NCBI RefSeq assembly: GCF_011386835.1
Contig: NC_088794.1
Span: 6,200,001 to 6,264,000, forward strand
Source: Chrysemys picta bellii
Lineage: Eukaryota
Direction: 5' to 3'
DNA: 64,000 nucleotides
The translations under genes were made by a program, and so were the position numbers. The notes below the pieces were generated by a model. It ran no database searches. It was given only the letters and a program-made list of their open reading frames with translations, and was not told the origin of the DNA. How positions within the stretch are numbered: position 1 is the first letter of the stretch; each line of letters begins with the position of its first letter. Shown here piece after piece: positions 11,582 to 60,814 of the stretch.

Positions 11582-12520
11582 TCACTGAGAATCAATCATC
11601 CTGTCTAACATCCTCGTAAAGGCCTTTTTCACCTCCATGTTCCTCAGGCTGTAGATCAGGGGGTTCAACATGGGGATCACCAGGGTATAAAATAAAGAAA
11701 TGATTTTGTCCTGATCCATGAGGTACTTTGAACTGGGCCGTAAATACATGAAACATCCTGTTCCGTAGAAGATGGTGATGGCTGCCAGGTGGGAGGCGCA
11801 GGTGGAGAAGGCTTTGCATTGGCCCAGGGCAGAGTTGATCCTTAGGATAGCAACCAGAATGTATATGTAGGAGATGAGGATGATCAAGATAGTAGGTGTT
11901 ACCACCACAGCAGTACAGGTAAAATGAACAATGTCTGCAATGCGGGTGTCAGAACAGGACAACTTCAGGAGGGGGGGCACATCACAGAAGAAATGGTTGA
12001 TGATGTTTGATCCACAGAAGGACAAACGGAATATAAATAGAGTCTGAACTGTTGCATTTACCCAGCTGGCTAGGTACGACCCCAGCACCAGCAGCACGCA
12101 GAACCGCTTGGACATGATGACGGTGTACAGCAATGGGCTGCAGATGGCTGTGAAGCGATCATACGCCATCACCCCCAACAGGCAGCACTCACAGGACACA
12201 GCAATGCAGAAGAAGTAGAACTGCAGAGCGCACCCAGTGAATGTAATTGCTTTGCTCTCCACTGCAAAGGCCATCAGTGTCTGGGGAGCGATGACGGTGG
12301 AGTATCCCGCATCTAAGAGGGCCAGGTTACTGAGGAAAAAGTACATGGGGGTGTGAAGCCGGGACTCAATCCTGACTAAAGTGACCATCCCGAGATTCCC
12401 CACCAGGATGAGCAAGTAGATGAACAGAAACACCACAAAGAGCATGACTCTCAGGTGCTGGTTGTCCGTGAATCCCAACAAGATGAACTCCGTCACGGTG
12501 GTGTGATTCCCCTTCAACAT
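11582..12520 (-). CDS. Olfactory receptor, OR5-like (class II), 312 aa, intact single-exon CDS
   Basis: Motifs GN (TM1), [49 protein letters not shown]; N-glycosylation site NHT. Confidence 0.97.
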
Positions 12521-13364: not shown

Positions 13365-16300
13365 TACAAGAGAGAAGTCCCATATTCAGTGCTGACTGTC
13401 AAGAGCTCACCGAGTGCTGGTTCCTTACAATATAATGTATTATGACTAGATTCACATACAGTTACCCAGGTTGATTAATTCCACCCCTGGCCAGTGGTAC
13501 TCTGTGCACAGCAAGCTATTAAGGTGAGGATATAGGACATAGGTGCTCGTCCACTTTCTTTTATGGGGCCAGGCTAGTAGTTTCATACAATAAGGTACGT
13601 GGCAGGCAGGCAGAATTGTAGGAAAGGGATCCGTAGTCACCATACTGAGTTGCCAGAGTTACTCGATGAGCTTCTAGAGTATGTGTACCAGTAGCCTGGC
13701 CCCTTGTTTGTACTTCAGAGCGTCTGATGTCAAACACAATTAACTCCCTCCTAAAATTTTACCCTATTTCTCCTGTTCCACTCCTTATACCGGGGGCTGG
13801 ACCTATCAGGCTATAGAATCATTCTCGAACTCTTTTTGGCCAATTGTCCGTTTAAGTATTTGTATGCAGTGGAACAGCTTCATTTGGAGAAACTGGAGGA
13901 GCCCTGATCAGAATACCCCATAGCCCAGTGGTTGGGGCACTCTCTAAAGAGATGAGAGACCAACGTTTAAATGTTTTATCCCCACAAAACTGGTGGGGGG
14001 GGAGGGATTGAACTTGGGTCTCCCACACCCTGGATGACTGCTCTTACCACCAGAATAAAAGTTAGAAGGTTGGTGATGCCAGCATGAGCACCAACACTTC
14101 CTTCCCTTGCATTTCTCAAAAGAAGCAACTTAGGTGCCGTTCTACAGGACTGTCCTCCTGCCCATTGATCACAAGCAGTCGGGACTCAGGTGCTGAACTC
14201 CTGAGGGACAGCGCTTAGGGCATTCTCCCATTGGCGAGCTCCCCACTCAGCATGCTGGCTTTTATGGACCCCATTCCTAGTCAGCTTTCTCTCCTCCCCC
14301 TCCCCCCATGGCATAGGGAGCCCAGGGTCCTAACTCATGTTTTGTGAATCCTGGAAATTTTCTAGGGACCTAAAAGTTAGGCAGTATAACACTGAGCATT
14401 CCAATGCCTAAGTCCCTTGGTGAATCTGGCGTTACACATTTTCTTTATTGGTTTAAATTAGAGCTCATTAGAAAAGGAAATTTCCATTCCATGGTTAAAT
14501 CCAAATTCTGAAATTCCAAATACGAATGAAATGTTGACATTTCAAACTTTGCCCTGGAATGGAAATTCCGAACAAGAATTTCAGTTCAGAAACATTGAAA
14601 AGATATTTTTTCTGTAATTTTAAAACAATAATGTAAAGTAATGTATTTAATATAATATAGACGATTACATTAAAGTTTTAATATAATATAAAAGTAAATA
14701 TGAAATAAAACAATACGATAGACTCAAAATGAAACATTTTTACCTTATCAGAGCAAAACATTTGGACATTATCAAAACAAAATGAGAAAGTAAGACATAT
14801 TCTGGTTAGACATCTTCCCATCCAAAATGTAATCAAAATCAATGCATTCCTGCAAAATGTTATTTTTTTGTCAATTTTGCATTTTCTGACAGAATTGTTC
14901 CATCAAAATTGTTTTGACCATCGCTAGTTTTGGTGTTTCTAAAGATTGTTTTTCAGGATATATATCAATGGGGAAGGAGTTAGACTGATGGCTTTTGAAA
15001 GTGCATCTCCTACGCCATGCACCAGAACACGCACTGGCTGTGACAATGGGAGGTTTCCCTAAAACACTGCTCCCCTCTTTCAGCAGTCTGCGCGTGTGAC
15101 TAGTCCCACATCTAGAGGATATAAATCTAGGAACTAGATGGGGGGGAGTGGGAGTTGCTGATTCGGCTGTGGATAAAGAACGATGAGTCAGATGCTCAGG
15201 TAGCATGAATGGGAATCGACTTCCGTGGATCTACATTGACCGACACCAGCTGAGGATCCAGTGTTCTTAGAATATCTACCTCCAGAATAGTCCATCACCT
15301 GCACCGCATCACTGCACATAATTAATGAAACAATCCACATCCTTGATCTCCCCCAGACACACGTGGCAAATATACCGATTGGACACATTTCTTTACAATC
15401 AAAATACATTTTCAAAAAAATAGAAATAAAAGTTTTAATACTCTGAGACGCCCTCTATTTTGCAGTATGTTATTCTTACCTAAGTAATCGCTTCCCTTTC
15501 TCAGAATGCGAGCGACATGGGCATCATTTCCCTTGTCACTGCTTATTCTGCAACAGAAAAAAACAATATAAATGTGCTGTTCAGATAATCAGGACTCTGA
15601 TTTCAGTGAGTCTGATCTCCACGTGAATTAGCTCTAAATGACAATTGTATCCACATGTCGGAACCAAAGGAGAAAATTTATACCATCTCCTTTGGAGCTT
15701 AAACGACAAACCTACAAGAGGGAGATGTCTGATGTTCTTGATCCCAAAGGGGATTGTTTTTGGAGGTCGGAGGGGTTGTTTATATTTGTTTTGGTGGCAT
15801 ATTGGGACAGAATCCTTGGAGTACTGCCGAGTCTGAACATGAGGCCAGGCACAGGTGGGATTATTAGAACATCTTTCATGTCCCCTGGGAATAATTCCAC
15901 ATAATTGTGTTGCCTACAAAACCTGTGCAAACTCCCTGGGGATTCTTTTATCTCTTTTTTCAAAGTGAACCAGCTATTTTTCTCAGGCAGGAACCTGAAC
16001 AATCCCTCCAGTGGCTAGAACACTAGCCTGATACTCAGGAGACATGGTCATTTCCTTTCTCCATCACAGTCTTCCTGTGTGACGTAGGGCAAACCACTTA
16101 GTCTTTCTGTTCCTGCAAACTGGGGATATTAACGCTTCCCTACCTCACAAGGATGTTGTGAGGATAAATATATTAAAGCTTCTGAGATACTCTGGTGATG
16201 GGGCCATATAAATAGAGCTGAGCCAATAACTGATTTTTCACTCGTACACCTTGCAGGCTTCCAGTTCTCAGCTAGAGAGAGAGACAAGGTGGGTGAGGTA

Positions 16301-16519
16301 ATAGCTTTTATTGGACCAACTTCTGTTGGTGAGAGAGAGACCAGCTTTTGAGCATACACAGAGCTCTTCCTCAGGCCCTGGAAGGAACCAAACCCCTTTC
16401 CCACCACCGCCGGGAGGCAATGTAAATATTTATTAAAAAAAAAACACAACAGTACTACCTGGATCTTACCATTATTAGCCTCCAGTCCTTCCTGGGAACT
16501 GAAAATGTTGTCTGAGCTG

Positions 16520-16730
16520 GTCAGGTATCGCCAGCTTCCCCAGGGCAGTAACTATTTGCTTTGGCATTGGCCTGGCTTTCCTAAATCGAGGCTTGTGGCA
16601 CTCGAGGGTTGGGGTGATCTCATCACACATTCTGAAGTTCTGAAGCCATCGTTCGTCATCCCAGTTATCCAAAATCATGCAATCTCACGACACCATGCTG
16701 GTTCTCCTGGACCAGAAGTGGCAGTCCATC
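16520..16730 (-). mobile_element. PIF/Harbinger transposase remnant
   Basis: HFWSRRTS...WDDERWLQNFRM...IVTALGKLAIPD matches the N-terminal region of HARBI1-like transposases; agtgtagacgtagcc terminus at ~18021-18035. Confidence 0.75.
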
Positions 16731-17000
16731 CATGGGCATACCTTGGCAATACTGGCAGTCACCATATCTGTTCCATGGGGCCAGAGGAGTTTGTCAGTCA
16801 CCCATCATGGTCAGCCATCTTCGTCATGTCAGAAAGTTCTGTCCAGATTCCACCCAGCATCTTGCCAATTGCCCACCCCACCGCATGAACACTCGTCCCT
16901 CAAGAAGGAGTGTTAGGAGTGCGAGTGCCAATGTAGGATACTGGCTTGTATTTTCGCCTGAAATAGTATTTTAAGTTTTGTTTGCCTGTTTGATTTTTTG

Positions 17001-17019
17001 ATATATATATATATATATA

Positions 17020-17062
<43 letters not shown>
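17001..17062. repeat. Compound (TA)n(CA)n microsatellite (mirror 36446-36498)
   Basis: Direct reading. Confidence 0.97.
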
Positions 17063-17064
<2 letters not shown>

Positions 17065-17149
17065 TCTTACTAATATGTGTGAATAAAGGGACCCTTACTA
17101 AGGACAAAGACAGACACCATGTATGCTGCTTTTGCCTAAGTCAGATGGG

Positions 17150-17677
17150 TTTGTTAGTATAATGGGAACAGAGAAGAGCAGTAAAAGTGTTACTGGGCAT
17201 GGTGGGAGTGTAATATATGAGCACACCCTTGAAGACTGCCTCAAGTCCTATCTCAAGGCAAGGTCAAGCAACCAGTTGGGAAGGGCAAAGGGTGATTGGG
17301 GGGAATGTAAAACACTAAAAGGCCAGAGATATGCCTGCCCCTGACTGTAGCACAACCTCACTCCTTACCCCTCCCCTGGGGCACAAAAGGGGTGGGATGA
17401 AGACCCCCAGACACACGACCTTCCGAAACGGAGCGTGACCATAAGTTGTAAGGGGTGGGATGGTGGGCGTGCATTGCAGGTATCATTATACCTACCGAGA
17501 AGGTGGGGAACGGGACACTGGGAAACAAGGTTCTGTGATCTCAGAGTTATGGGACATGTTTGCTGGAAACTAAACCCAATAAACATTGCATTATCTGCAC
17601 TTCGGACTTCTGGTCAGCTTTCTGTCTGCATAACGAGAACCGGGGGAGTGAGAGGGTGAAGAGAAAACCTGATAACA
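17150..17677 (+). mobile_element. LTR-like element (mirror ~35833-36360)
   Basis: AATAAA at ~17578 and a 3' end ...gataaca; 5' boundary and TSD not resolved. Confidence 0.5.
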
Positions 17678-21270: not shown

Positions 21271-21640
21271 ACAATTCAGTCTCCACCAATTGGAGAATGA
21301 AAACAATGGTATATTAGGCAATGGTCTGTTTCCTTCTTGGCATGTTGTCAGCGGCCCATGCAGTGGTTATTCTGACGTTGTTTAATCAGTTCTCCCTAAG
21401 AATCATCTGCATTGTCAACTTTGTCCATTACCCTCCTTGACTTTTTATAGGTCCATATCTGAGTCTGCACTGGAATCAGAGTGAATTTCACATGATCTAC
21501 GAGTTTTATGGAAATATTTTCCACATACCAACCCCTGAGTTCTCTCTCTGATCCCACATGATTGAGATGTGCTGTTCTCTGCAGTCCTGGCCTCCTTAAA
21601 ATTCTGTAACGGTAGTGCTGGAATTGAGATTCTGTGATCT

Positions 21641-22140
21641 NNNNNNNNNNNNNNNNNNNNNNNNNNNNNNNNNNNNNNNNNNNNNNNNNNNNNNNNNNNN
21701 NNNNNNNNNNNNNNNNNNNNNNNNNNNNNNNNNNNNNNNNNNNNNNNNNNNNNNNNNNNNNNNNNNNNNNNNNNNNNNNNNNNNNNNNNNNNNNNNNNNN
21801 NNNNNNNNNNNNNNNNNNNNNNNNNNNNNNNNNNNNNNNNNNNNNNNNNNNNNNNNNNNNNNNNNNNNNNNNNNNNNNNNNNNNNNNNNNNNNNNNNNNN
21901 NNNNNNNNNNNNNNNNNNNNNNNNNNNNNNNNNNNNNNNNNNNNNNNNNNNNNNNNNNNNNNNNNNNNNNNNNNNNNNNNNNNNNNNNNNNNNNNNNNNN
22001 NNNNNNNNNNNNNNNNNNNNNNNNNNNNNNNNNNNNNNNNNNNNNNNNNNNNNNNNNNNNNNNNNNNNNNNNNNNNNNNNNNNNNNNNNNNNNNNNNNNN
22101 NNNNNNNNNNNNNNNNNNNNNNNNNNNNNNNNNNNNNNNN
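21641..22140. other. Assembly gap (500 N)
   Basis: Run of N. Confidence 1.
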
Positions 22141-24935: not shown

Positions 24936-27851
24936 TGGTGGATTGTCTGTCACTTGAAGTCTTTCCAACTGGATATCTAGCTAAAAGATGTGTGAGAGCT
25001 AAAAAAAATAATAATTATGGGCTTGATACATAAATTATTGGGCAAGGTTTTGTTATGCAGGAGGTCAGATTAGATGATCACATTGACCTCTTCTGGCCTT
25101 AAACTGTATGAAAAATCAGTTTGACCCAATCAGGGGCAGTAAATTGTAAGGCATTATTAGGCACTAATTGTAAGGGTAGGGTGATTGCTTGGCATCTACA
25201 CAGAACAAAGTTACAGTTGTTTGTTTGCTGTAACTGCGCTTTTTCCATAGTTTAACATGTCTGGATTTCTTTTAAGCCTAACTTTGACACTGAATTCACT
25301 GAGTGCTCCCTACGGAAAGAAAGACTGAGCCATTCATTTTCAGTTTCACTGCTCTTGAGAGTTCTTCCTGTGGCTTAGCAAAACAGCGAGAGCTTTCCGT
25401 AAAACTAAGCAAAGGCAAATAAACAAATCTACGTAGCATGTTAGGGCACCAAGGAGGGCATTGTAATGAGCCCCTCTGTGCCTGGCTTGAGACTGTAATT
25501 GGAGGTGTGACTTCAGAGACTTGATCTCTAAATGACACAGAAATGAATATATAAAGGTATTTGGTGCCCTAACATGATCCCTTAGGGATGAAGAGTGATT
25601 GAACTCTCTCTTCCACCAGTAGCTATGATACAATACTTCTTTCCTTCAGTGGAGGTGGGATAGCTATTTTCCTTCAGTTCTGATTCCTGGACATAACTTT
25701 CCATTTTCTCCATTTACTTGGAAATGTGCTGTTTTTGCAACATTTTTGCAACTTGAGACAGACATTGTTCATTTTTCTGTCTCAGGATAAATTACAGGGG
25801 CAATGGATATGGTTCATGGAAGACCCTGAAAGGTCCAGATGGATATTAGGTAAGAATCCGGTATTATACATAGAGATGAATATGAGTTACACACTTCAGA
25901 TCTGGAATCAGATTCAGATCCGACTTCTGCAACCTTTGAGGATTTTCAGATTCTGGGCTTTGGCTACAGCCAATTATAGAGATAAGTCAGGGCTGTCATT
26001 TATTGTTGTTGTGTTATCAATTAGAGGTCAATGCCCCACTGTACTAGGTTCTCTGGAAACACATAGTAAGGGAGAGTTCCCGCCCTCAAGAGCTTACAGT
26101 CTATTAAACAAGACCGAAGAGGGTGGGCGAAAGGAAGGATTATTACCCAATTTTTACAAAGAGGGAATTGAGGCAAAGAGGAAATCTTTGCTGTGTCCAG
26201 AATCACACAGGAAGCCAGTAGCAGAGCCAGGAATTAATGGCCGATCTCAGAATTGTGCCCCTAGTGCTAGTCTGACCATTATCCAGTGTTGTGTATGCGT
26301 GTGAGTGCAGGAGGGGGGAAGACGGACACTGGGATCCGGTGGGTTCTGGTGTGGCTGATCTCTAATCATAAGGGGGAAATAACAATAATTATTTGCACTG
26401 CGGCAGCCCCAGTCATGCCAGTGTTTGTTTGAAAAATGTAACCAATGGGTAGCATTGGAAGGGCGGAGGTGGTAGATTATAAATTCTGTCTTCAGAGCAG
26501 GGTTAGAATAGTTTAAATAAGACCTGGTATAGCAGATCCCTCTTGGCACCTGCTGGGCTGACAGAGTCACTCAGAAACCCTGAGGTTCAGTAACCACTGG
26601 TGTCATTTACTTACAGGTTCTGTTCCCATCACCTTTTTGCCATACACAGCTTGGGTTCTCATGACTACACCTAGGAACACTCCACTATCTCTACTACCCC
26701 TCCCTTAGCCTCCCCCACTTTTGGCTTCCTTCCTCCCAGCCTTTTCTATAGCCCCAGGCTAATTGCGTGGGTAACTGTCTCCCATTCACCAATTAGGTGC
26801 AGGTTTTTCTAGCCAGCTCCAATTTGCTTCCCTTAATGGGAGCTGGCGTGACAGGGGGCTGAGTGACCAGCTCTTGCCCCGCCCCTGTCACACCTGGGCC
26901 CACACATTGAGTCATGAGGCTAAAACAAAATCCTGAACAGCTGCTCACAAAGTGGGCCCTGTCCATTCTCTGCACTCAAACTGGCTGGGAGCTTTTTAAT
27001 AAAATGGATTTTCCCCCAAAAATATGGATTTGCCAAATCGAAATGTTTTAGTTGGAATGTCTCAGTTTTGATTAAACATTTCTCAGGTTCAGGGTGGAAT
27101 TTCTGGTTAAACTCCAGAGCCATAGAGAGAGCGACCCCAAAATAGCCAAATCCCAGCTATCAGGGCACTCACCTGGGATGTGGGAGACCCCTAGTCAAGT
27201 CCCTTCTCTGCCTAATTAAGAGCAGGGAAATAGATTTATATTGCCAATCTGACAGGTGAGTGCCCTAATGTCTGCCCTATTTTCTATTCTATGGCGCATC
27301 TCAGTCTCTCAATCTCTCCTGTTGGAGCTGTTCCACTTTGTATGAATAATAAAGGATTCATTGGGACAGAGAGAGAGAAAGTCTATCTCGATAGCCGAGT
27401 GGTTGTAAGCCTGATCTGGGACGTGAGACCCAGGTCCAAGTGCCTGATTTGGAACGGGGTCTTGAATCTGAGTCTCCCTCATGTGCCAGTATGAACCACA
27501 TGGGGGAACAAAACAAACAAAAAAATAGAAGCCAAGCAGCTGACTCTAATGATCTACTCCTTCTGGTGGCTGTTGTGAGTAGAAGGAGTCTGGGGACTAT
27601 ATAAGCCAGACCTAACTCAGTCCAGAAGAGTTAGGAGTAGAGGCAACGCCTAAGTAGACTGATGGAGTGCTAAGGAGGGGAAAATAAAGCAGCTCTCAAA
27701 AGGGGAAGAAGGAGTTGTGATCACCTGAGAGGGGAATATTGAGTTTGGGGAGTGTTGGGCATGGCCTCAGGACCAGCGTCCACAAGACTGCGTGGGTTTG
27801 CCTAGAGGGAAGAGCGCTATGGGGAAAGGTGCTACAGATGATGGACACAGC

Positions 27852-28150: not shown

Positions 28151-29373
28151 TTGGATGATGACAAACTGATGCACCCCTTTCTATAAATGTTACTACATTC
28201 TCCCCAGCATCCTTTCTCCCCCAACCTTTTCTGTGGTGGTCAAGTCATCCTGACCCACCAGGCAATTGCTTGGTGGCATTTTGAGTGGTGGTATCTGGGG
28301 CTTAGTTGGAGGGCTAAGTCACATTAGTGACGGTCAGCTGGTCTCCCTGGAGCTGTTGAAAATCCACCAGTTCATCCCTTATCCTAGATGAGTACCGTAA
28401 CCACTGGGCTACTGGCTTCGTGGGTTGGGCTTCTCTATCTCTCATTTTCTGTGAAGTTTTTCCAGAAGACCAGGTTTCATCCCAATATAGAATGGGAAAA
28501 TATTTTGAAATCTTGAAAATGTTCAGGGGATGGGAAATCCTTTTCCTACCCATGTCTACTCTGTACCCACTGGCATAGGGATTGAGGAATACCCAAGCTG
28601 AAATCACACCTTGGAATGGTGCATAGATAGACCCAATCAGAAAAAAACCCAATTTTTAGAACCTGTTACGGTCCTTATGTTAGCTATCACTTATGGTCAC
28701 CTAAATGTATTATTGCCCTTTGATGCCAGTGACTCTATAAAGTTGAGCAGATCTTTCCATTTAAGATCTAGCCTTCGGGAAGAAAAAAGACATTCAGTGA
28801 CATGAATGTCTCTACAGGTACATACTATCCCTGCAACACCTTTCTGCTGGGGATTCCCAGCGTGGGACACAGATCCTTTGTAGGACCCTTTCTCTGAGCT
28901 TCAGTGGTGCCAAGTGCCATCGACTCCCACTGACATTGTTGGAAGCCGGAAGAGAAAACCAGTGTAAATGAAAACATCCTACACCATTCGTTATTGTCTA
29001 TACATTTACAAGAGATGATTTCCCTCCTTTCCAAACTAATTTAACTTAACAACAGAGATGGTGTATGGGAGAGACAGGGATGGCAAAGGCCTGTGCCCGA
29101 AGGGACATTTCTGGCATGGGAAGGATTCAGATTTGGACAGTCTCTCATATTGTGACGGAATCTCTGCACGTATTTAATTGAATGCAAAACAGTGCACAGT
29201 GTGCTGTGTTTCTGTGCAGAGACCGTGCACTAGCTCCAGGGGGAAGTGTGTGTATAACCCATAGTACATTCCCCAAGACACACTATTTCACGGGAGCAGT
29301 CAGAGTTATTACAAGGAATCCACATGTGGTCCCTTTTTGGCTTCTGTTTATTTGCAAATTTTGCTTTCCCCCC

Positions 29374-31001
29374 TTCATACCAATGTGACAGAGTTGATTT
29401 TCCTGGGATTCATGGACCACCCAGAGCTGCAGGTCCCACTCTTCATGTTGTTCCTACTGAGCTATGTTATCATCCTGGTAGGGAATCTTGGGATGATTGT
29501 TTTCATCAGGATTGACTCCCATCTTCACACCCCTATGTGCTTCTTCCTCTGTAATCTGTCCATTGTAGATGTTGGTTATTCCTCTGTCACTGCACCTAGG
29601 ATGCACATGACTTCTGTAGCAGAGAGTAATAGAATCATTTCATTCACTGAGTGCACTCTGCAATTTTTCTTTGTCTGTGTCTTTGTGACCAGTGAATGAT
29701 GCCTCCTGGCCACCATGGCCTCTGACCGCTTCACAGTCATCTGTAACCCACTGCTCTAGAGGGTCATCGTGTCCAGGACACTCTGTGTGCTGCAGGTAGT
29801 TGTGTCTTTGTCAACTGCCCAAACAATTTGTATATTCAGCTTGTCTTTCTGTCCCCCGAGTGTCAGCAATCATTTCTTCTGTCACATCCCTCCCCATCCT
29901 GAAGCTGTCCTGCTCTGACATACACAACACAGATGTTATTCATTTCACCTTGTCAACTATATTTGTCATGATTATTATCCTAGTTGTTCTAGTCTCTTAT
30001 ACATACATCCTCGTCGCCATCTGTGGTCAGATGTTGGCTGGGTGTGTGTTCGTTCAGTGTGCTGTCCCAGCTCTGTGCAGATAGCAGAGATAGCAGACCT
30101 CAATTAAACAGCCCAACAAATCCACAGATTCGATTTTCAGCAAAAGCACCCGGCCAGGTTTACTGTCAACAAAGCCCGGTAATAGCGCCTGGCTGGAGAG
30201 TAAGACATGTATGCTCGTGACAATGGACACAGCTCAGTCAGTGGCAGGACTTTCCACTGCTCCCTAGGATGGCCAAAGACACTCCCTCTGAGATACAACT
30301 TTATACACCAATACAAACAAGTTACATATTGCCCCTGATGTATCAGAGTGACACCCTCCGACGTATTAGGGTGCCACCTGTTGATGGATCCAAGGGCTGC
30401 CCATTACCTTGTACATGTTGGTTTGCTAAAACATCTCTATCCATCATGCTGTCATCCTGACCTTATCCTTAAGATGGGTCAGCGTGCTCCTGTTATCTCT
30501 GAGGATTGTGTTTGGTATCAAGGTGTTCTGGTACCATCTTTCTGGAATGTGTTGGTGTATATATTTCTGTGCCTAGCACTACTTAAGCATGTTTGTTTCT
30601 GCAATGTCAGCCCTGTTCTTGCCAGATTCTGTGAACGGGGCCTGCCTCTTGCTCACAGCTTGGCTTTGCTTTATAGCTGCAAAGTTTTGACTACTTTAGC
30701 TCAGGCCTCACACCAGGCCTCTGATACACGGCCTTATGTTTCAGGCCGTCTTCTTACTACATCATCCTGAAGATCCACTCTGTTAAGGGAGACTCAAACC
30801 CTTCTGTACCTGTGCCTCTCACCTGACAGCTGTCACTACCTTCTACGATACTCTGATTTTATGTATTTACGACCCAGGTCTGGCTACACCTTGGACCAAG
30901 ACAACATCATCTCCGTGTTCCCTCTGATCTACAGCCTGAGAAACAAGGAGGTGAAGGATGCCGTTAGAAGGATGATATACAGGAAGATATTTTCTCAATA
31001 A
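29374..31001 (+). pseudogene. OR5-like olfactory receptor pseudogene interrupted by a solo LTR
   Basis: [12 protein letters not shown]...[13 protein letters not shown]..., in-frame TGA at 29697, further stop and frameshifts, no start Met seen. Resumes after 30761 with ILKIHS...CTCASHL...[12 protein letters not shown], ending TAA at 30999-31001. Confidence 0.93.
30022..30761. mobile_element. 740-bp solo LTR inserted in OR pseudogene
   Basis: TG...CA termini, 5-bp TSD ccatc/tcatc; removing it restores the OR reading gccatcctgaagatc. Confidence 0.85.
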
Positions 31002-35194: not shown

Positions 35195-36444
35195 TGGCAT
35201 TGCTGGATACAATGGACGGCCATACAGTCTCTCCCCAGATGTGTTCAAAGATGATGTTCACAGAATTTTGGGTCAGAGAACGTTAAGACGTTTCAGCTAC
35301 ACCCACAAAGGCCCGTCAGGTCACTAATTGCCATTTGAGATGTATAAGTCCAACATTTAGGTGCTACTGAGGCTCAAAGGCACAAAAGGGCTGTTAGATT
35401 CCTAGTTCCCACAGATGCTCATTGGGAGCTGAGTGCTTAACTCACCTTTGTGCTTTGGGAATATCCCTCCTTTGGCTACGTCTACACTTCCGTGCACACC
35501 TGGATAGCTGACTGTGTACATGCTCCTGCATATTCCTCAGACCTGCGTGTAGTGTCCACATATACTGTGCTGGAGAGCGGTAAAACCCTGTGTAGACCAC
35601 ATACCTGCATCCACACTGCCACTTTTGTTCTGCCAGAGCAGCGCTACCACTTCAGAGGCAGTATCCCAGGGCTCTGTGCCTCACAGGAGACACTCTAGGA
35701 ACTGCCTTTCTGAGTGCAGTTGCCACGGCCCATCCCTTTTACGCATTTGCCCATGGCAGTAGCCACTCATCTCTCCCTCTGGCCACACTGGATAGAAGAC
35801 ATGGAAGGATGGTGGTTCTGCTCCAGCTCCTTGTTAGCAGGTTTTCTCTTCACCCTCTCACTCCCCCAGTTCTCGTTATGCAGACAGAAAGCTGACCAGA
35901 AGTCCAAAGTGCAGATAATGCAATGTTTATTGGGTTTAGTTTCCAGCAAACATGTCCCATAACTCTGAGGTCACAGAACCTTGTTTCCCAGTGTCCTGTT
36001 CCCCACCTCCTCCGTAGGTATAATGATACCTGCAATGCACGCCCACCATCCCACCCCTTACAACTTATGGTCACGCTCCGTTTCAGAGGGTCATGGGTCT
36101 GGGGGTCTTCATCCCACCCCTTTTGTGCCCCAGGGGAGGGGTAAGGAGTGAGGTTGTGCTACAGTCAGGGGCAGGCATTTCTCTGGCCTTTTAGTGTTTT
36201 ACATTCCCCCCAATCACCCTTTGCCCCTCCTGACTGGCTGTTTGACCTTGCCTTGAGATAGGACTTGAGGCAGTCTTCAAGGGTGTGCTCATATATTACA
36301 CTCCCACCATGCCCAGTAACACTTTTACTGCTCTTATCTGTTCCCATTATACTAACAAACCCATCTGGCTTAGGCAAAAGCAGCATACATGGTGTCTGTC
36401 TTTGTCCTTAGTAAGGGTCCCTTTATTCACACATATTAGTAAGA

Positions 36445-36498
<54 letters not shown>

Positions 36499-36769
36499 CA
36501 AAAAATCAAACAGGCAAACAAAACTTAAAATACTATCTCAGGCGAAATTACAAGCCAGTATCCTACATTGGCACTCGCACTCCTAACACTCCTTCTTGAG
36601 GGACGAGTGTTCATGAGGTGGGCAGGGCAATTGGCAAGATGCTGGGTGGAATCTGGACAGAACTTTCTGACATGACGAAGATGGCTGACCATGATGGGTG
36701 ACTGACAAGCTCCTCTGGCCCCATGGAACAGATATGGTGACTGCCAGTATTGCCCAGGTATGCCCATGG

Positions 36770-36977
36770 ATGGACTGCCACTTCTGGTCCAGGAGAACCA
36801 GCATGGTGTCGTGAGATTGCATGATTTTGGATAACTGGGATGACGAACGGTGGCTTCAGAACTTCAGAATGTGTGATGAGATCACCCCAACCCTCGAGTG
36901 CCACAAGCCTCGATTGAGGAAAGCCAGGCCAGTGCCAAAGCGAATGGTTACTGCCCTGGGGAAGCTGGCGATACCTG
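36770..36977 (+). mobile_element. PIF/Harbinger transposase remnant (mirror copy)
   Basis: WDDERWLQNFRM...VTALGKLAIPD. Confidence 0.75.
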
Positions 36978-50046: not shown

Positions 50047-51003
50047 ATGCTTTTGATGATGCCCAGAGGAAATGAGAGCACCGTGTCTCTATTTCTGCTG
50101 CTGGGATTCTCCAGTCTAGAAGAGCGGCAGGTTCTGCTTTTCCTGGTGTTCTCCCCGGTGTACGTGATAATCCTGACCTCCAACATCACCATCATGGCAG
50201 CCATCAGTGTTGATCGGAGCCTCCATACCCCCATGTACTTCTTACTCTTCGCTTTGTCCTTCTCGGAAACCTGCACCACTATGGCTGTCGTCCCCAAGCT
50301 GCTGGTGAGTTTGCTGTCAGGAAACCAAACAATTTCTTTCCTGGGATGCGCTGCTCAAATGTTCTGCTTCTTTGGCTTCGGGGGCACAAATTGTTTCCTG
50401 CTGTCAGCCATGGCTTACGATCGCTATGTGGCCATATGTAAGCCGCTGCAATACCCAGTTGTGATAAACAGGAGGGTTTGCGTTGAGCTGGTCGCCGTTT
50501 CATGTGCAACTGGCTTTCTTATAGCACTAGGCATCAGTTCCCTTACATTCAGTTTGCCCTTCTGTGGGCCCAATGCCATCAGACATTTCTTCTGTGACAT
50601 CTCGCCCGTTCTGAGGCCGGCGTGCAGTGACCATCATATCATTGGGATTGCCATTGTTTTTCTGTGTGCCTTTGTTTTGCTAGGCACCTTCACAGGAATC
50701 ATCCTCTCTTACATCTATATCCTCGCCGCCATCCTGAAGATCCGCTCTGCCACAGGCAGGCGCAAGACCTTCTCCACCTGCGCCTCCCACCTCATCGTTG
50801 TGATCACACACTTCAGCTGTGCTTTTTTTGTGTATTTAATACCCAAATCAACCGCTTCCCTAGATGAGGACACTTTGATTGCCTTGTCTTATACCTTGTT
50901 TAGTCCTATGTTGAACCCTGTGGTTTATAGTCTGAGAAACAGGGAAGTTAAATCAGCCCTAAGGAAATTAACTGCCCACACATTTCTTTCTCCAAAAATG
51001 TGA
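50047..51003 (+). CDS. Olfactory receptor, OR10-like, 318 aa, intact
   Basis: [71 protein letters not shown]. Subfamily assignment is from motif resemblance only. Confidence 0.95.
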   Translation: MLLMMPRGNESTVSLFLLLGFSSLEERQVLLFLVFSPVYVIILTSNITIMAAISVDRSLHTPMYFLLFALSFSETCTTMAVVPKLLVSLLSGNQTISFLGCAAQMFCFFGFGGTNCFLLSAMAYDRYVAICKPLQYPVVINRRVCVELVAVSCATGFLIALGISSLTFSLPFCGPNAIRHFFCDISPVLRPACSDHHIIGIAIVFLCAFVLLGTFTGIILSYIYILAAILKIRSATGRRKTFSTCASHLIVVITHFSCAFFVYLIPKSTASLDEDTLIALSYTLFSPMLNPVVYSLRNREVKSALRKLTAHTFLSPKM

Positions 51004-52867: not shown

Positions 52868-53680
52868 GGTAACGGAATAGACCCATGTTCACACACTACA
52901 CGGTATTGTTATAATGCTTGTACAAGGTTTGCCTTGTGAGGTATTAGTTAAAACTCATAACTTGCTGATGAATATCATGGCAAAATGCACATGGCATCAT
53001 TACATGTAAAGTTAGGAACATAAGATGAAATCATGACTCAAGCATGTTTCCCAGATAAGTCCAGGGAGTAGCTAAACCACTTCCTCAGAGACAAAGGGCA
53101 AGCTGATACTTCAGGTGTCAAGTCTGACTCAACAAGGCTGATAGACCATTACCTGCCAAGTGGCCATTCTTTGACAAGGAAAGGGGCAGGGATAGAAATC
53201 TACATTTTAGCAAAGAAACTGCATGGAGTTTCCTTTCTTCACCAGACTGCCTGTCACCTTTCTCCTAGCTGGAAATGCTTCTCAATGGGGGGCAGGACTA
53301 TAAAAAGAAGGGACAGACACCCCAAGACTCCCATCATCTCTCTCCCTGTCTATCTCTGGCATCACACCTAAGAAGATAAAAGAAAATAGTCACTGGACTA
53401 ACGGGGAGGGATCCAGACCTAAGAGTTTGGTCAGTAATAGGCTGGAGTCTGTAGTGAGAAACTTTGTTTGAATCTAACCTAGTTTATTAAATTAGGCACT
53501 AGTAACTATTTTATCTTTATTTTTCTTATAACAGTTTGTGACTTTTCAGCCTCATTACTTGTACTCACTTAACATCTATCTCTTTGTAATTAATAAACTT
53601 GTTTTACTGTTTTACCTAGTCCAGTGTGTTTAAATTGGAGTGTCTGTCTATTCTATTTAAAATAATAAGATGGCATGTAC
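52868..53680 (+). mobile_element. LTR-like element (solo or truncated)
   Basis: TATAAAAAG at ~53298, downstream AATAAA at ~53591, composition resembling turtle LTR families; ends not resolved. Confidence 0.6.
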
Positions 53681-54179
53681 TTGGTGGATCAGACAGATGC
53701 TCATGAGAAAGAGGATAAATAAGGTGGGGAAGGAAAACGTCACATGAGGGAGGGTGTGACAGCAGGAATACAAGTCTCCTATCCCAAATATTCAGGATTT
53801 AGATGAAGCAGGGCCAGGTGGTGATATCATCTGGTTCCTTCTCTCTGGCTTGGTCTGGTCAGGACGTCTTTCAGGATCAGGACGATGAAGGCCCAATTGT
53901 GTCATGGTGGATGCCAGAGGATGATGGAGGTGGCAGCCATACTGGTAAAGCTCAGGCCTTCCAACCCACTTGTCCCCATGCTATGATGTAGTGACCCCAC
54001 CCCCAGATAAACAGCATCCATTGAGGGATGGATACTACATCCCTGGATCATTAACCTATCCAAGCACGTTTGGGTGGATTCAACTATAAACATTTCCTCC
54101 CATTTGTAGAATCTTTCAGCTCATTGCCGTGCCAACCCATGACTTTACCAGGTGCCTTGCAGACCCCTTAGTGCTGCTC

Positions 54180-55740
54180 CTTTAACCCAACCATCCAGTC
54201 CATAGCAGTCTCTGTGTCTCCATCTTTTGCTGACTTTCATACACAATTGTATGTAACAAGCTGAGCGGGATTCCTGTTACCTGGGATATCTTAGATTTCA
54301 TGCATCTGTGCAATGTGGGGCTGGCTCCATGACTGGGGGCACCAGGCAGGAGAGCTGAGACTGTGGCCCCGTTTTGCCAAGGACTGAACCAGCACATGTT
54401 AGAGGCAAGTCCCCAAATTGCTTATAATATAAATAAGCAAAGGCAGAGAGAGGGAAATAGATTTCCTGAAGGTCATACAGCAGGTCAAAGTTAGGAGTAG
54501 ATTCCAGGTCTCCTGGGTCCCAGCCCAGTTCCGAATCCACTAGACCTGTTAGAGTCTCAGGTTTTTTCAATGATTTTGTAAAAATCCTCTATTGCTACAT
54601 CAATTGCAGTAAGAGCATAGGATAAGCCTGTGTTAGTATGTCTAAGGGCTTGGGTGGTTTGGCTTTTGACCCAAGAATTGTATGACCTCTCAGAATTTAG
54701 GTTAAGCGTATTTAGTATAGAATTGGTGCTTCCAAAAAATCCTCCAATATCACCTAAGATGCTATATTTTTGTCTTTTGGCTGTGCGGGCCCGAATAACA
54801 TATTGGTGTATTAGAAACTGTAGCTGGTCCTGCAGCCATTGCAGGGAGCTGGGGTGATCTGAGCATACATTTCGCAAAGGTGCCGAAAAATTGGACAAAT
54901 CATATTTAACCTGAAGAGAGACCATAAGAACATCATGCAAAAGTGTTTTGTTGGGGCCTACTTGAATCATGCCATCCGGTGGGATAGGGTACAATGCCGG
55001 ACAGATAGTAGGTGAGGAGTATGTTCAAATGGTCAGGTTGTAACATCGTATATCAGTACAATGTGAACGTTTAACAGGGTGTACACAGTATTCCTGACAA
55101 TAGAGTCCCTCCATCCCAGGTTCCCACAGCAGAGGAGGAACATCCGTCCATCCCACATTTATAAACACTGTTAGGTTAATAAAAAGTGCCCAAGCCTCCC
55201 ACAAACATTCACACCGATACTCTCCCAACCCATTAGCAGTCTCCTAAATGTTGTGAATCTCGACCAATCCATCCGAGGCCCTGGAAATAGAATGGTTTGT
55301 TTGTTCTAGAGGAGTGTCCGTAAATTAACACTCTGTCCTTTGGTTCCACTCCCAACATTCTGTGGTCTTGTACCCTGAAATTGGGGGTCCTATATGAGTG
55401 GGCCCACATCCCATGAAGCTAAATACCCAGTAACAGTCCAGATTCAGTGAGATGCAGGGAGGGAGCCGAAGACTGCTCCCGGACTGTGGTAGTCGAATTG
55501 GGACCTCAGAGCCTGGATGTTTTTGGAGGCGAGCTGTAACCACAATACGTCCCAGGTGATCTGGCCGAGAGGTAAGCCAGATGTCTGGCTTTTTTTTACC
55601 CATTCGCCACTGCCTCTTGTAGGAAGTTGCACATACTGACCAGCTTTGAAGCAGGTATCTTGTGTGACATGTACCAAAGGCGGGTCCCAGGAGGCTGCAT
55701 CAGGTATATTTACCAAGAGGATTAACATGGGGAACCACAT
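54180..55740 (-). pseudogene. Decayed env-like (retroviral-type fusion glycoprotein) gene
   Basis: Signal-peptide-like start MWFPMLILLV; ORFs 55325-55603, 55025-55228 and 54557-54994 share one frame; several N-x-S/T sequons; basic site RTAKRQKY followed by Gly-rich hydrophobic SILGDIGGFFGSTNS and a heptad-like helix. Confidence 0.6.
54430..54548 (-). mobile_element. Degenerate MIR-type SINE inserted into the env-like gene
   Basis: Minus strand gtctagtggat...ggctgggacccaggagacctgg...cctgctgtatgacctt...ccctctctctgcct. Confidence 0.65.
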
Positions 55741-57218
55741 TTGTTACCTAGAAGGATACAATATGTTGCTCTTTGCATCTACAACGAGATGGCTTTTGCT
55801 GGTGAGGGATCCTTCAGCTTCCTGGCTGAGGAAAATGGGCCAATTTCCTTTGAAACTAAGAACAGGGAATGAAGTGAGCTCATGAAGTGAGCCCAAGTTT
55901 TGAAGACAACACGTCCATGTGCAGTTATCCCCAGAGGAATTGAAAGACATTTTAATGATCCCATCAGTGCTTAGCCTGATGTGCAGACCTCTGGGGACCA
56001 CCCAGGGATTACATCTGCAAATGCCACTAAAACTAATATATAAACAAACCCAGCGGTCTCCAAATACAATTCTTTTGGCGGGGTCAACAATGACAGACAT
56101 CTGTCTGCTGCCGGTGGGTTTCATCACTCTGGTTCTGATGGAGCTGGCGTAAATATTCTCTTTTGACTTTTTTTTTTTTGCAAGTGGAAATAGTTCTGAT
56201 TTGGAGTCAATTCACCTGGAGAAGGGACTGTCTGAAGAGTCCATCTATTATTGTGTTCCTTTTGCACAGTAACACAATGCTGAGGAAAGTCATGCTGATG
56301 CCTCAAGTAATCTGGGAAACACAAGTGATTGCTTAGGTAAGAGTAATGTATGAAAAAAAGGGCAGTGGAAGTTGATGTTACAAAAAGGCCACATTCTCAA
56401 TGGCTGTAACTTCTCTGAAATCAATGCTCATTTGCTCTAGTTGAGGGCCTGACTTACGATAGGGGAGGGGTAGCTCTGGTATACTTAATGATGGGACTTG
56501 TCTACTGTTGAACAGCTGGTTTCTGTAAGTGCTTTACAATCAGCGTGCTTGCTTGGGATGTCTTGAAAATTGCGCTGCCTCCTGGAAGCCAAGGGTAAGG
56601 TCCAAATGGATAGTCGCTTGTGCTTGGAATTCTCGAGGTACAGCCCCACGGTTCTGAGTGCTTGCTAACCCAAGTCAGACTGCTTTGAGTGTGGACTGAA
56701 GGGGACTTGGGCTCAAAGCTGACTCCCGGGCTTCGTGTGCATTGTGGGCATCCCAAGGCTGGCTCAAGGTGACAGTCTGCGCTCATCGAGTCTTAGCATC
56801 ACTCTTGAACTGTGAGCTTCAGTCCTGGCCCTGGCAGCTTCCTTAACCTGTGTGTGGACGTTAGTTACATTCCGCAGAGGTTTCTTTTGGAACTTTTGCC
56901 CTGAGAGCAAAGCTCCTGGTTTAGGGGCTGATTTTTCGAGGTGCTCCAAAATGTGTCGGCATCAGGGGATTGACTTTAAAGTGACATGTTCTAACCAAGC
57001 CAGGGATGGGATCTGAGATATACATTTGGGATCATTTTGTTCCGAGGATCCAGCCATGCAGCCCTTCTTAAAATTAACTGCTTATAATTTTCAGAGTACT
57101 AAAATCGACATAGATAGGTAAATTGATTTCAAACGTGATATGCTGCAAGGCAGCTTGGAGTAGAGCTGGCGGTGCTATTTGGGGGTAATTTGGTTAAGAG
57201 ATTCCTGAGAAGCCAGGA

Positions 57219-57575
57219 CAGGGGTTCTCAACCTTTCTCTTTCTGAGTCATCCCACCCCCAACACGCTATAAAAACTCCAGGGCCCAGCTGTGCTACAAC
57301 AACTGTGTTTCTGCTTATAAAAGCCAGGGCCGGCATTAGGGGATAAAATTGCCTGGGGCCCTATACCACAGGGGGTCCGCGAAGCTAAGTTGCTCAGGCT
57401 TTAGCTTCAGCCTCGGGTAGTGGGGCTTGGGGCCACGGGCTGCAATCCTGTACGGTGGGGCTTTGGCCTTCTGTCCTGGGCCCTAGCAAGTCTAATGCCA
57501 GCCAAGCTTGGAGGAAACCCTGAAACCTGCTCACGGCCCGCCCAGGGGCCCCGGACTCCTTGTTGAGAACTACAG
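57219..57575. mobile_element. Non-autonomous hAT-type element
   Basis: caggggttctcaac...gttgagaac terminal inverted repeat; TSD not clear. Confidence 0.6.
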
Positions 57576-58129
57576 AGGTAGGGAACAAAACTAGGGATCT
57601 GACTGCTATGCCATATACCATTGGACTGTCCTGGGATCAGCCCCTTTGTGAGTGACACACACTAAGCAGTGTACTCCCTTGGTGACTTAAGGGCCCAGGT
57701 CCTGTCCCTAGAATGAAAGGACCGTGTGTCCCCACCCTTTACTCCAGTATTTTGTGTGCTGTCCGCCTTAGTGCTCTCAAGGTGCCTTTCTGCTCAGTGT
57801 TTGGGACCACAAGGAAGCAACTTTGGAAGCATGAGCGGGACGGTCACTTTAGAGGATGTCCAGCCCTCCACAAACATCCCCCCCCACACACACAATGCCA
57901 TAGAGCTATCTGCCGACGTCTTGGTGGGGGACAGTTTGGGGGGCAGTGCTGGGTCAGAGCCTGGATGGTGATGGAGAGCCTTGATGATATGGGAGGGAAT
58001 AGTTGCCACACAGAAAATGACACGGGAGAGGCCAGTGTAAGGGTCCCAGCCAGGATAAATCACCCATCTGTTGGGATAGGCTCACTGAACGCCTGCCTGG
58101 CAGCACTAGATATGATGAACTGGGTCTGT

Positions 58130-58640
58130 GCCAGCCACGAGGAACAAATGTGCTCAACGCATAGCACGGGCACACGGGACAGGGTGAGGAGCTGAGAATG
58201 GGCGTGCTCGGTGCATGGTACAGTACATAGCTCTGGGATTGTAGCTGGGAGCTGAGAATACATCAATGAGAGCAGACTAAGGAACCGTGAATGGGCTTGC
58301 TCGATGAATGGCACATGCACACAGTGCTGGGACAAGGACTGGAAGCTGGGGATGGGAATGTGATCTGCCTGGCACAAGTCCAACAAGGGCTGAGTTGCAA
58401 TCCTACAGGCACATTCAGGGCACGTTCAGTGTGTGGCATGGTGCACTGACCAGGTGTGGTCAGTGCGTGGCACAGAACACAGGTCTGGGATCATAGTTGG
58501 GAGCAGAAAAGATGCATGCTTGGTGCATGCACCTGGCACACACTATGAGACCAGTGTAGGGATCTGGAAATAAGTATGTTTGGTGCATTGTGCAGGCACA
58601 CAACTCTGCCACTGGGATGGGGAGCTGCGAATGGGCTCTG
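58130..58640. repeat. Degenerate ~55-60 bp tandem repeat array
   Basis: Recurrent minus-strand motif ccattcNcagctccc...cccag...tgtgtgcc...tgcaccNagc. Confidence 0.5.
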
Positions 58641-58854
58641 TAGTAAGAAATGTATGAGTGCCCATGTGTCATATCCTTTCTCACACTGCGTAGAAGCTTG
58701 TTACGCAAAGATTCCCATTAGTCAATGGTAAAGCTCATTGATGTGGATTATGGTCTCAGATTCTGGGTTTTCTATAACCTTGGAAGCTTATTCCAATACT
58801 TACCTATCCTTAGAGTTAGAGAGTTTCCTCCTCATAACTAACCTAACCTGGAAG

Positions 58855-59381
58855 GTTGGTCGAAGCATGAAGGGGCATACAAATGTTTAGCATATCTGGA
58901 TGTAAATACTTTTCAACACTGGCTACAACAGTGCCATGCAAATGCCTCTTCTCACTTTCAGGTGACATTGTAAATAAGAAGTGGGCAGCATTATCGCCTG
59001 TAAATATAAACAAACTTGTTTGTCTTAGTGATTGGCTGAACAAGAAGTAGAACTGAGTGGACGTGTAGGCTCTGAAGTTTTACACTGTTTTGTTTTTGAG
59101 TGCAGTTATGTAAAAATAATTTTACATTTGTAAGTTGCACTTTCACAATTAAGAGATTGCAGTATGAGGTGAATTGAAAAATACTATTATCTTTTTTACA
59201 GTGCAAATATTTGTAATAAAACAATAACACAAAGTGAGCACTGTACAATTTGTGTTCTGTATTGTAACTGGAATCAATATATTGTTGAAAACATCCAAAA
59301 ATATTTAAATAGACAGTGTTCTATTATTGTTAAATCTGCAATTATTTTTTTATCTCACAATTATATTTTAATTGTTTGACA
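58855..59381 (+). mobile_element. hAT transposon 3' remnant (dimerisation domain)
   Basis: With one frameshift: WSKHEGAYKCLAYL/CKYFSTLATTVPCKCLFSLSGDIVNKKWAALSPVNINKLVCL, the hAT C-terminal motif (PATSVPSERLFS..G-like). Confidence 0.8.
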
Positions 59382-59389
59382 GACGTACT

Positions 59390-59555
59390 AGTTTGCTTAT
59401 GAAAATGTTATGTGCGACTGTGTCAAAAGCCTTACTAAAATCTATATCCTATCTACTGCTTCACCTCATCTTCTAGGCTGGTTACACTGTCAAAGAAGGA
59501 CATTAGGTTGAGTTGACATGATTTCTTCTTGACAAATCCGTGTTGGCTGTTACTT
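59390..59555 (-). mobile_element. CR1-type reverse transcriptase fragment
   Basis: Plus-strand gtcaaaagccttactaaaatcta and catgatttcttcttgacaaatcc correspond to the degenerate DFSKAFD and QHGF..KKSC region on the minus strand. Confidence 0.6.
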
Positions 59556-59878
59556 ATTGTTGGCAATGGGGATTGAACTACGGCTCTGACTTTAACAGTA
59601 TGAGCGTCTGCTGCCAGAACTCAAAGACCCAACTGTGTAGCCTGAAGCCAGTAGCAGACTCTTAAATCTCGATATGGTCTAGTCACTACAGGGACCCAGA
59701 GAAGCAGAGGGTATATTTGATAGTTATAATATCTTCAGACCTATGCACTGACTACAGTTTATGCTTTATTGAAAGTGACAGAATTACACCAAGGGGTTTG
59801 CACTCAGCCCTTCTTTGTCTCCTCTTTCAGTGTACACCTCACTTTTCTCACCTGCCGAGGACAGTGCATCTGGGATAA

Positions 59879-60814
59879 ATGGGAGAGAGAAATCGTACTC
59901 TGGTGACTGAGTTCATCTTGGTGGGATTCACAGACAACCTGAAGCTGCAGGTCACCCTCTTTGTAGTGTTTCTGTTGATCTACTTGCTGATCCTAATGGG
60001 GAACCTCACCTTGGTCACCTTAATCAGGACTGACTCCCGACTTCACACCCCCATGTACTTTTTCATCAGCAACCTGGCCCTCTTAGATGTCGGCTACTCC
60101 ACCATCATAATTCCCAGCACGCTGATGACCTTTGTAGCAAGGAGCAAGGTCATTTCAGTCACTGGATGCACTGTGCAGTTTTTCTTCTTCTCCATCGCCA
60201 TCTCTTGTGAATGCTGGCTGCTGAGTGTGATGGCGTATGACCGCTTCACGGCCATCTGCAGCCCATTGCTCTACACCGTCATCATGTCCAAGCGGTTCTG
60301 CGTGCTGCTGGTGCTGGGGTCATATTTCATGAGCTGTCTGAATTCAATGGTTCAAACTGCATTTATATTCCATTTGTCATTCTGTGATGCCTATATCAAT
60401 CATTTCTTCTGTGATGTGCCCCCCATTGTGAAGCTGTCCTGCTCCGACACCCACATCACAGACATTGTTCATTTCACCTGTGCGACGATGCTAGTAACAA
60501 CTACCATCCTGATTATCCTCGTCTCCTATATATACATCGTGGTCACTATCCTAAGGATCAACTCTGCCAAGGACCAACGCAAAGCCTTCTCCACCTGCGC
60601 CTCCCACCTGATGGCCATCACCATCTTCTACGGAACGGGCTCTTTCATGTATTTACGGCCTAGTTCAAAGTCTTCCATGGATCAGGACAAAATCATCTCT
60701 GTGTTTTATACCCTTGTGATCCCCATGCTGAACCCCCTGATCTACAGCCTGAGGAATAAAGAGGTCAAAGAGGCCTTTAGGAGGATAAGAGAGAGGAAGG
60801 TTTTTTCTCTGTAA
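59879..60814 (+). CDS. Olfactory receptor, OR5-like, 311 aa, intact; older paralog of 40205-41149
   Basis: Full OR motif set; long stretches match the 40205 gene ([32 protein letters not shown]); same 5' flank catctgggataaATG. Confidence 0.97.

Follow-up and report, generated by a model that had tools for sequence, protein, structure and literature searches.

Envelope remnant in a probable olfactory-receptor region of a turtle

A 64,000-nucleotide stretch of the Chrysemys picta bellii genome (contig NC_088794.1, positions 6,200,001 to 6,264,000; referred to as the window) carries, at 55740-54550 on the minus strand, what is very probably the dead, truncated envelope gene (env) of a retroviral envelope family resembling the fusion (F) proteins of paramyxoviruses and pneumoviruses. 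As judged from sequence, only the front half of an env survives in the window copy, broken and non-coding; intact relatives of this gene reside in fish long terminal repeat (LTR) retroviruses. Class I fusion proteins carry a basic cleavage site, followed by a Gly-rich hydrophobic peptide and a heptad repeat. All three were present in the window copy, with the cleavage motif incomplete. The original prediction, made from the letters alone, had assigned the frame to the env of a poorly characterized endogenous retrovirus (ERV)-like lineage. A retroviral family and a fish carrier element were indeed identified, but the env at this locus is only a front half, with no pol by which to place the lineage. 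The fragment is ∼1.25 kb long, has no flanking provirus, and is composed of the following features:

55594-55740, minus strand: ATG, signal-peptide-like leader and N-terminus of the surface subunit; aligns with the N-termini of fish homologues and of Caretta protein P0003
55590-55597, minus strand: A8 run; change from the leader frame to the main frame
54557-55600, minus strand: principal env frame, decayed; its 347 codons are interrupted by stops at 55327, 55246 and 55027, and a further stop lies at 54559
55205-55270, minus strand: immunoglobulin (Ig)-like E/F-strand motif V/L-x-I-x-N ... G-x-Y-x-C, at the position of the invariant Y-x-C of the fish N-terminal domain
54926-55135, minus strand: conserved Cys-rich linker block, ending in an NKTLLHDV motif common to fish envs
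54788-54925, minus strand: F2-like strand and helix preceding the cleavage site; the F-like core of the fish model starts at residue 266
54764-54787, minus strand: basic cleavage region, without the complete R-x-K/R-R motif carried by homologues
54560-54763, minus strand: fusion-peptide-like segment with the first heptad helix, breaking off at ∼54550

The env-like frame is real and beyond chance. It contains three stops in 347 codons; the two alternative frames contain 14 and 19 (background 5.0%). With X placed at the stops, the main frame scored 149.3 bits against a profile of 26 homologues, while the reversed sequence scored -3.3 and the best of 500 shuffles 7.2; hhalign gave 99.8% (E 1.7e-29). 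The proposed start, MWFPMLILLV at 55740, is preceded by a pyrimidine tract-AG and held up, as 55692-55594 matches the fish N-terminus with 12.1 bits, a score reached by 0 of 200 shuffles. The ATG frame meets its first stop at codon 100. The A8 run (expected near 55590) and the three internal stops were found as described, as were the sequons (NHS at 55297, NLT at 55177 and 55039, NKT at 54952, NFS at 54892), the Cys-rich character (13 Cys), the VEIHNI...GEYRCEC motif at 55270-55205, and RTAKRQKY/SILGDIGGFFGSTNSILN at 54787-54710. The stretch with the Ig-like motif has no significant sequence homology to the family. A single frameshift had been proposed. At least one, near 55590, stands, but comparison with the Caretta paralogue indicates a second frame change near 55495, leaving the number uncertain, and between 55510 and 55330 neither frame scored above shuffles against the fish profile. 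Pfam returned nothing meaningful on the window frames, and neither Rfam nor ARAGORN found anything.

The env belongs to a family found in turtles, sharks, and teleosts

An exhaustive phmmer search of representative proteins with the env frame gave 13 matches at E<=0.001, 11 of which form one family; the other two are repeat proteins. One of these two, the V-set Ig repeat protein P0015, matches query residues 107-134 (E 7.7e-4). The named members are Caretta CAM2111711.1 and proteins of cyprinids, goldfish, zebrafish, and two sharks. The nearest protein match to the window env is from Caretta caretta (74%), followed by shark fragments (33-37%) and intact teleost proteins (∼30-37%). A profile search returned 96 of 4,249 candidates, of which all named ones are teleost. 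Over a shared 122-residue core, the window sequence has 33-37% identity with the two shark fragments and 21-29% with 17 teleost proteins. In a tree of this core, from which P0003 was left out as it does not contain the region, turtle and sharks group together at 92/85, a value below the starred threshold, and their branches are long. Intact members are ∼700-750 amino acids (aa) long and contain a signal peptide, an R-x-K-R site, fusion peptide, heptad, Cys-rich body, second helix, and membrane anchor. A divergent intact member (P0033, P0034, P0009 and P0035; 22-26% identical to other fish members) was observed in Carassius auratus and C. gibelio, and also in Logan contigs.

No viral-fusion Pfam family, PF00523 included, was matched among the 12 and 16 proteins scanned, the Env of snakehead retrovirus (SnRV) was not among the phmmer or profile matches, and searches of PDB sequences with the window frame and the family profile yielded chance matches only. 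The claim that this is not a gamma-type env was borne out: the hallmarks of that type (CXXC in the surface subunit, the immunosuppressive domain, and CX6CC in the transmembrane subunit) were not seen in alignments of intact homologues, and the fold neighbors are F-type.

Structure comparison with viral fusion proteins relied on a low-confidence model of fish homologue P0016, which matched paramyxovirus and pneumovirus F, foamy virus Env, and walleye epsilonretrovirus Env; the three-domain F-type fold was encountered on this model only. The family core is predicted to fold like paramyxovirus and pneumovirus F and not like ordinary retroviral envelopes. The N-terminal domain of the fish homologue is a predicted β-sandwich with weak V-set Ig similarity, for which Foldseek found no match among viral models at E<=0.001; on this modeling it would be Ig-like and likely receptor-binding. 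Foamy Env (Fernandez et al. 2024, PMC11468914) shares with the family a predicted F-type core in which both subunits contribute to domains, as do paramyxovirus and pneumovirus F, yet identity to this family is 7-15%. Foamy Env has an N-terminal leader peptide/transmembrane segment and an inserted receptor-binding domain (RBD), whereas this family has a cleavable-looking signal peptide and the N-terminal β-sandwich. The Envs of walleye dermal sarcoma virus (WDSV) and walleye epidermal hyperplasia virus 1 (WEHV1), described as lacking gamma-type hallmarks (PMC9967133), were the best BFVD predicted-structure matches to the fish model, but are 1159-1317 aa long, as opposed to ∼740 aa, and 13-14% identical.

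A fish provirus carries an env of this family

Fish gene models fuse the family env with integrase or gag-like sequence, and one fish contig, L001, contains LTR, coiled-coil/gag, protease, reverse transcriptase (RT, with YVDD), RNase H, integrase, env, and LTR, with gag and pol in-frame. The env gene is located between integrase and the 3' LTR. The L001 env is 35.6% identical to the window sequence over 177 aa (E 3e-27). L001 (1-9098) is a near-complete provirus with a few stops or frameshifts, and its terminal repeats are identical over the 80 nt available. A leader of 14 codons plus a splice donor lies at 1378-1424, just after the primer site and ahead of gag. Hart et al. in 1996 are said to have described for SnRV an env leader with a splice donor upstream of gag, and a coiled-coil Gag. 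The SnRV primer is Arg, unlike the L001 primer site, which looks Trp-like.

Among solved structures, the L001 RT is nearest to foamy RT. Compared by eye with the rows of the PMC7947760 supplement, the RT and RNase H motifs of L001 agree with SnRV and not with lokiretrovirus (Loki). L001 resembles SnRV-clade ERVs in its coiled-coil Gag region (as in SnRV, PMC2717909), in-frame gag-pol, YVDD RT, SnRV-like RNase H, and leader ahead of gag. The turtle locus differs from them in having no gag, pol, or LTR and in an env with its own in-frame ATG and signal peptide. Scans of viral contigs with the fish env and the L001 RT returned no carrier; a second contig, L002, was a weak, unrelated RT match.

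The turtle copy ends at an old repeat

The env is flanked on both sides by old repeated DNA:

54441-54546, minus strand: old short interspersed element (SINE)-like piece adjoining the truncation point; 65% to 11201-11312 and 41414-41525
55804-56360, no strand assigned: old host repeat (not pol) immediately upstream of env; further copies at 15455-16008 (65% over 582 nt), 36988-37279 and 25459-25674

Searched with the homologue profile, the whole window contains only profile positions 170-369 (weakly 9-52) of 714. The C-terminal half present in homologues, which comprises the remainder of the fusion subunit, the second heptad, and the membrane anchor, was not found anywhere in the window, and the claim that protein-like fragments continue beyond a MIR insertion was not confirmed. 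A SINE-like piece, presumably MIR-like, is present. No further env lies beyond it, and it therefore marks a truncation point as opposed to an insertion into env. Few contigs pile up on this SINE at 80% likeness as compared to the young element at 57219-57570, which suggests that the SINE is older than the env copies and that the env/SINE junction was made by deletion, not by SINE insertion. For an "empty-site" reading, in which the repeat adjoins a SINE without env at 16008-16021, the two SINEs and downstream DNA align with a score of 62.5, versus a shuffle maximum of 68.5. The supposed fragments lie in moderately to highly repeated sequence (53770-54295) that is not env, and Pfam gave no meaningful match in six frames of 53771-54432.

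Upstream, the old repeat begins 64 nt before the ATG and includes most of a 155-codon stop-free stretch, P0002; none of the 4 candidates examined for it, of 85-272 aa, proved to be a homologue (longer forms were not searched). A decayed integrase or matrix gene was considered here on the basis of a weak motif (56258-56196, E 0.63) and rejected, as repeat copies of the region occur at three further sites in the window. The repeat had no Pfam or PDB match. Its copies (55804-56360, 15455-16008, 36988-37279, and 25459-25725) show 58-65% identity between separate copies and a conserved protein-like reading by tblastx, and those at 15.5 kb and 25.5 kb lie ∼3-3.5 kb upstream of olfactory-receptor open reading frames (ORFs) in the same relative orientation. 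The L001 gag and pol found nothing better than E 0.29 in 55740-59900, and Pfam nothing. By the L001 comparison, Pfam, and repeat analysis, flanking pol and LTRs are absent from the locus, and the flanking provirus appears to have been lost by deletion.

Further repeats were observed nearby. An element at ∼52869-53762 (plus strand) looks like a solo LTR by eye (TATA near 53300, AATAAA near 53593, ending TGACA, GCAG on both sides); contig depth is high at its 3' end. It lies on the strand opposite env and is probably unrelated. The element at 57219-57570 is short and very high-copy, with sharp loose ends in 4/4 runs, and would be classed as miniature inverted-repeat transposable element-like; another short repeated piece lies at 56558-56731. 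Olfactory-receptor-like ORFs were recognized at 11582-12520, 40205-41149, 50047-51003, 59879-60814, and 29265-29699, and the window looks like a turtle olfactory-receptor cluster, judged from these and CR1-like ORFs. It also contains a large inverted duplication whose two arms are ∼96% identical (for instance, 14000-17499 and 36010-38731) and a 500-N gap near 21640-22140.

Related copies in sequencing runs

The env stretch was found, whole or in part, in 20 of the 24 runs listed, from seven organisms. Contigs of ∼96-99% identity bridge the upstream junction in 4/4 examined runs and the env/SINE junction in three of the four, the X19 contig ending too near the latter junction to count. Extra contigs of ∼85-87% identity also cover env, several with internal deletions: deletions 54830-55167 and 54669-55351 occurred in 3/4 runs (some with short sides), and deletion 54686-55378 in run X5 has the breakpoints of Caretta P0003. 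While contig depth does not equal copy number, the copies fit a small, old ERV family with a few internally deleted paralogues. The insertion is probably tens of millions of years old, and its shared orthologous junctions make it usable for dating the lineage in turtles.

Origin of the turtle copy

The remnant was likely left by an ancient ERV of, or near, the SnRV clade. This clade (clade Huo of Xu et al. 2018) has been reported in fish, amphibians, reptiles, and birds (PMC6001957, PMC12193657), and an SnRV-like turtle carrier is the most likely one, at somewhat better than even odds. We would give a smaller, though appreciable, chance to a turtle carrier of another lineage (epsilon-like, ERV4, or Ovex1/CrocERV37-45-like) that acquired an env of this same family by recombination. 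The low identity of the turtle env to teleost SnRV-like envs over the shared core, below that to the shark fragments, and the walleye Envs as best BFVD matches are consistent with such a carrier, and crocodilian and turtle ERV4 and Ovex1-related groups do carry envs (PMC4299795); however, L001, the only carrier seen whole, looks SnRV-like.

A lokiretrovirus env is improbable. Highly degraded lokiretroviruses are reported in Testudines, with an Env similar to PF00523 (Wang and Han 2021, PMC7947760), and both groups have a signal peptide, a basic cleavage site, a fusion peptide, a coiled coil, and an F-like relationship. In four Loki Envs of that study, however, about 120-150 residues precede the RxKR site, and the N-terminal extension of ∼250 aa that marks the present family is missing; TLLHD, WWDW, and VICTC occur 0 times in the part of its supplement compared; PF00523 similarity is detectable in Loki Env and not in the present family; and the L001 RT and gag are unlike the Loki rows by eye. 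Hardly more probable is a bare cDNA copy of the F gene of a paramyxo-, pneumo-, lispi-, or fish-filovirus-like RNA virus. A fragment that has an ATG of its own but lacks retroviral flanks would suit that origin, and the F-like fold neighbors include Mononegavirales glycoproteins, but every sequence homologue is a protein from a vertebrate genome, several of them being linked to integrase or gag, the candidate matrix ORF upstream is the old host repeat, and internally deleted paralogues suit an ERV family. There is similarly little to recommend a once-domesticated host env gene, syncytin-like or a restriction factor, that later decayed: the ATG after a pyrimidine tract-AG, the missing proviral flanks, and a locus common to several organisms speak for it, while the copies are multiple, diverged, and differently deleted, and the exhaustive representative search gave only one turtle protein, itself internally deleted.

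On the retroviral reading, the ancestral product would have been a type I glycoprotein of ∼700-750 aa, secreted via its signal peptide and ending C-terminally in a second heptad and membrane anchor. Its N-terminal β-sandwich would likely have bound a receptor, and cleavage at the basic site would have released the heptad together with a Gly-rich fusion peptide. Judging from F proteins and foamy Env (PMC11468914), the F-like core may then have refolded to a six-helix bundle, driving class I membrane fusion. Because of the stop at codon 100 and the loss of the anchor, the locus most likely does nothing today and has no function.

Both foamy viruses (PMC11468914) and lokiretroviruses (PMC7947760) have F-like Envs that are already published; through the present family, such Envs would also occur in SnRV-like ERVs, in fish, sharks, and turtles. 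Literature searches covering few subscription journals listed no paper on an F-like, Ig-bearing env of SnRV-clade ERVs, which does not prove that none exists. Tentatively, these envs may form a little-described third group of retroviral F-like Envs beside those of foamy viruses and lokiretroviruses, SnRV-clade or epsilon-related, in which a captured V-set Ig receptor-binding domain is joined to an F-like core. It is equally tentative that this group spans sharks, teleosts, and turtles, that its turtle form is nearest to those of sharks, and that it records an old water-borne jump between distant vertebrate classes. The possible Ig-like receptor-binding module would be a counterpart of RBD-C in gamma-type Envs (bioRxiv 10.1101/2024.03.17.585361). 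While the locus itself is an ordinary, dead fossil, the envelope family is of moderate interest, as it bears on how often retroviruses have swapped envelope classes.
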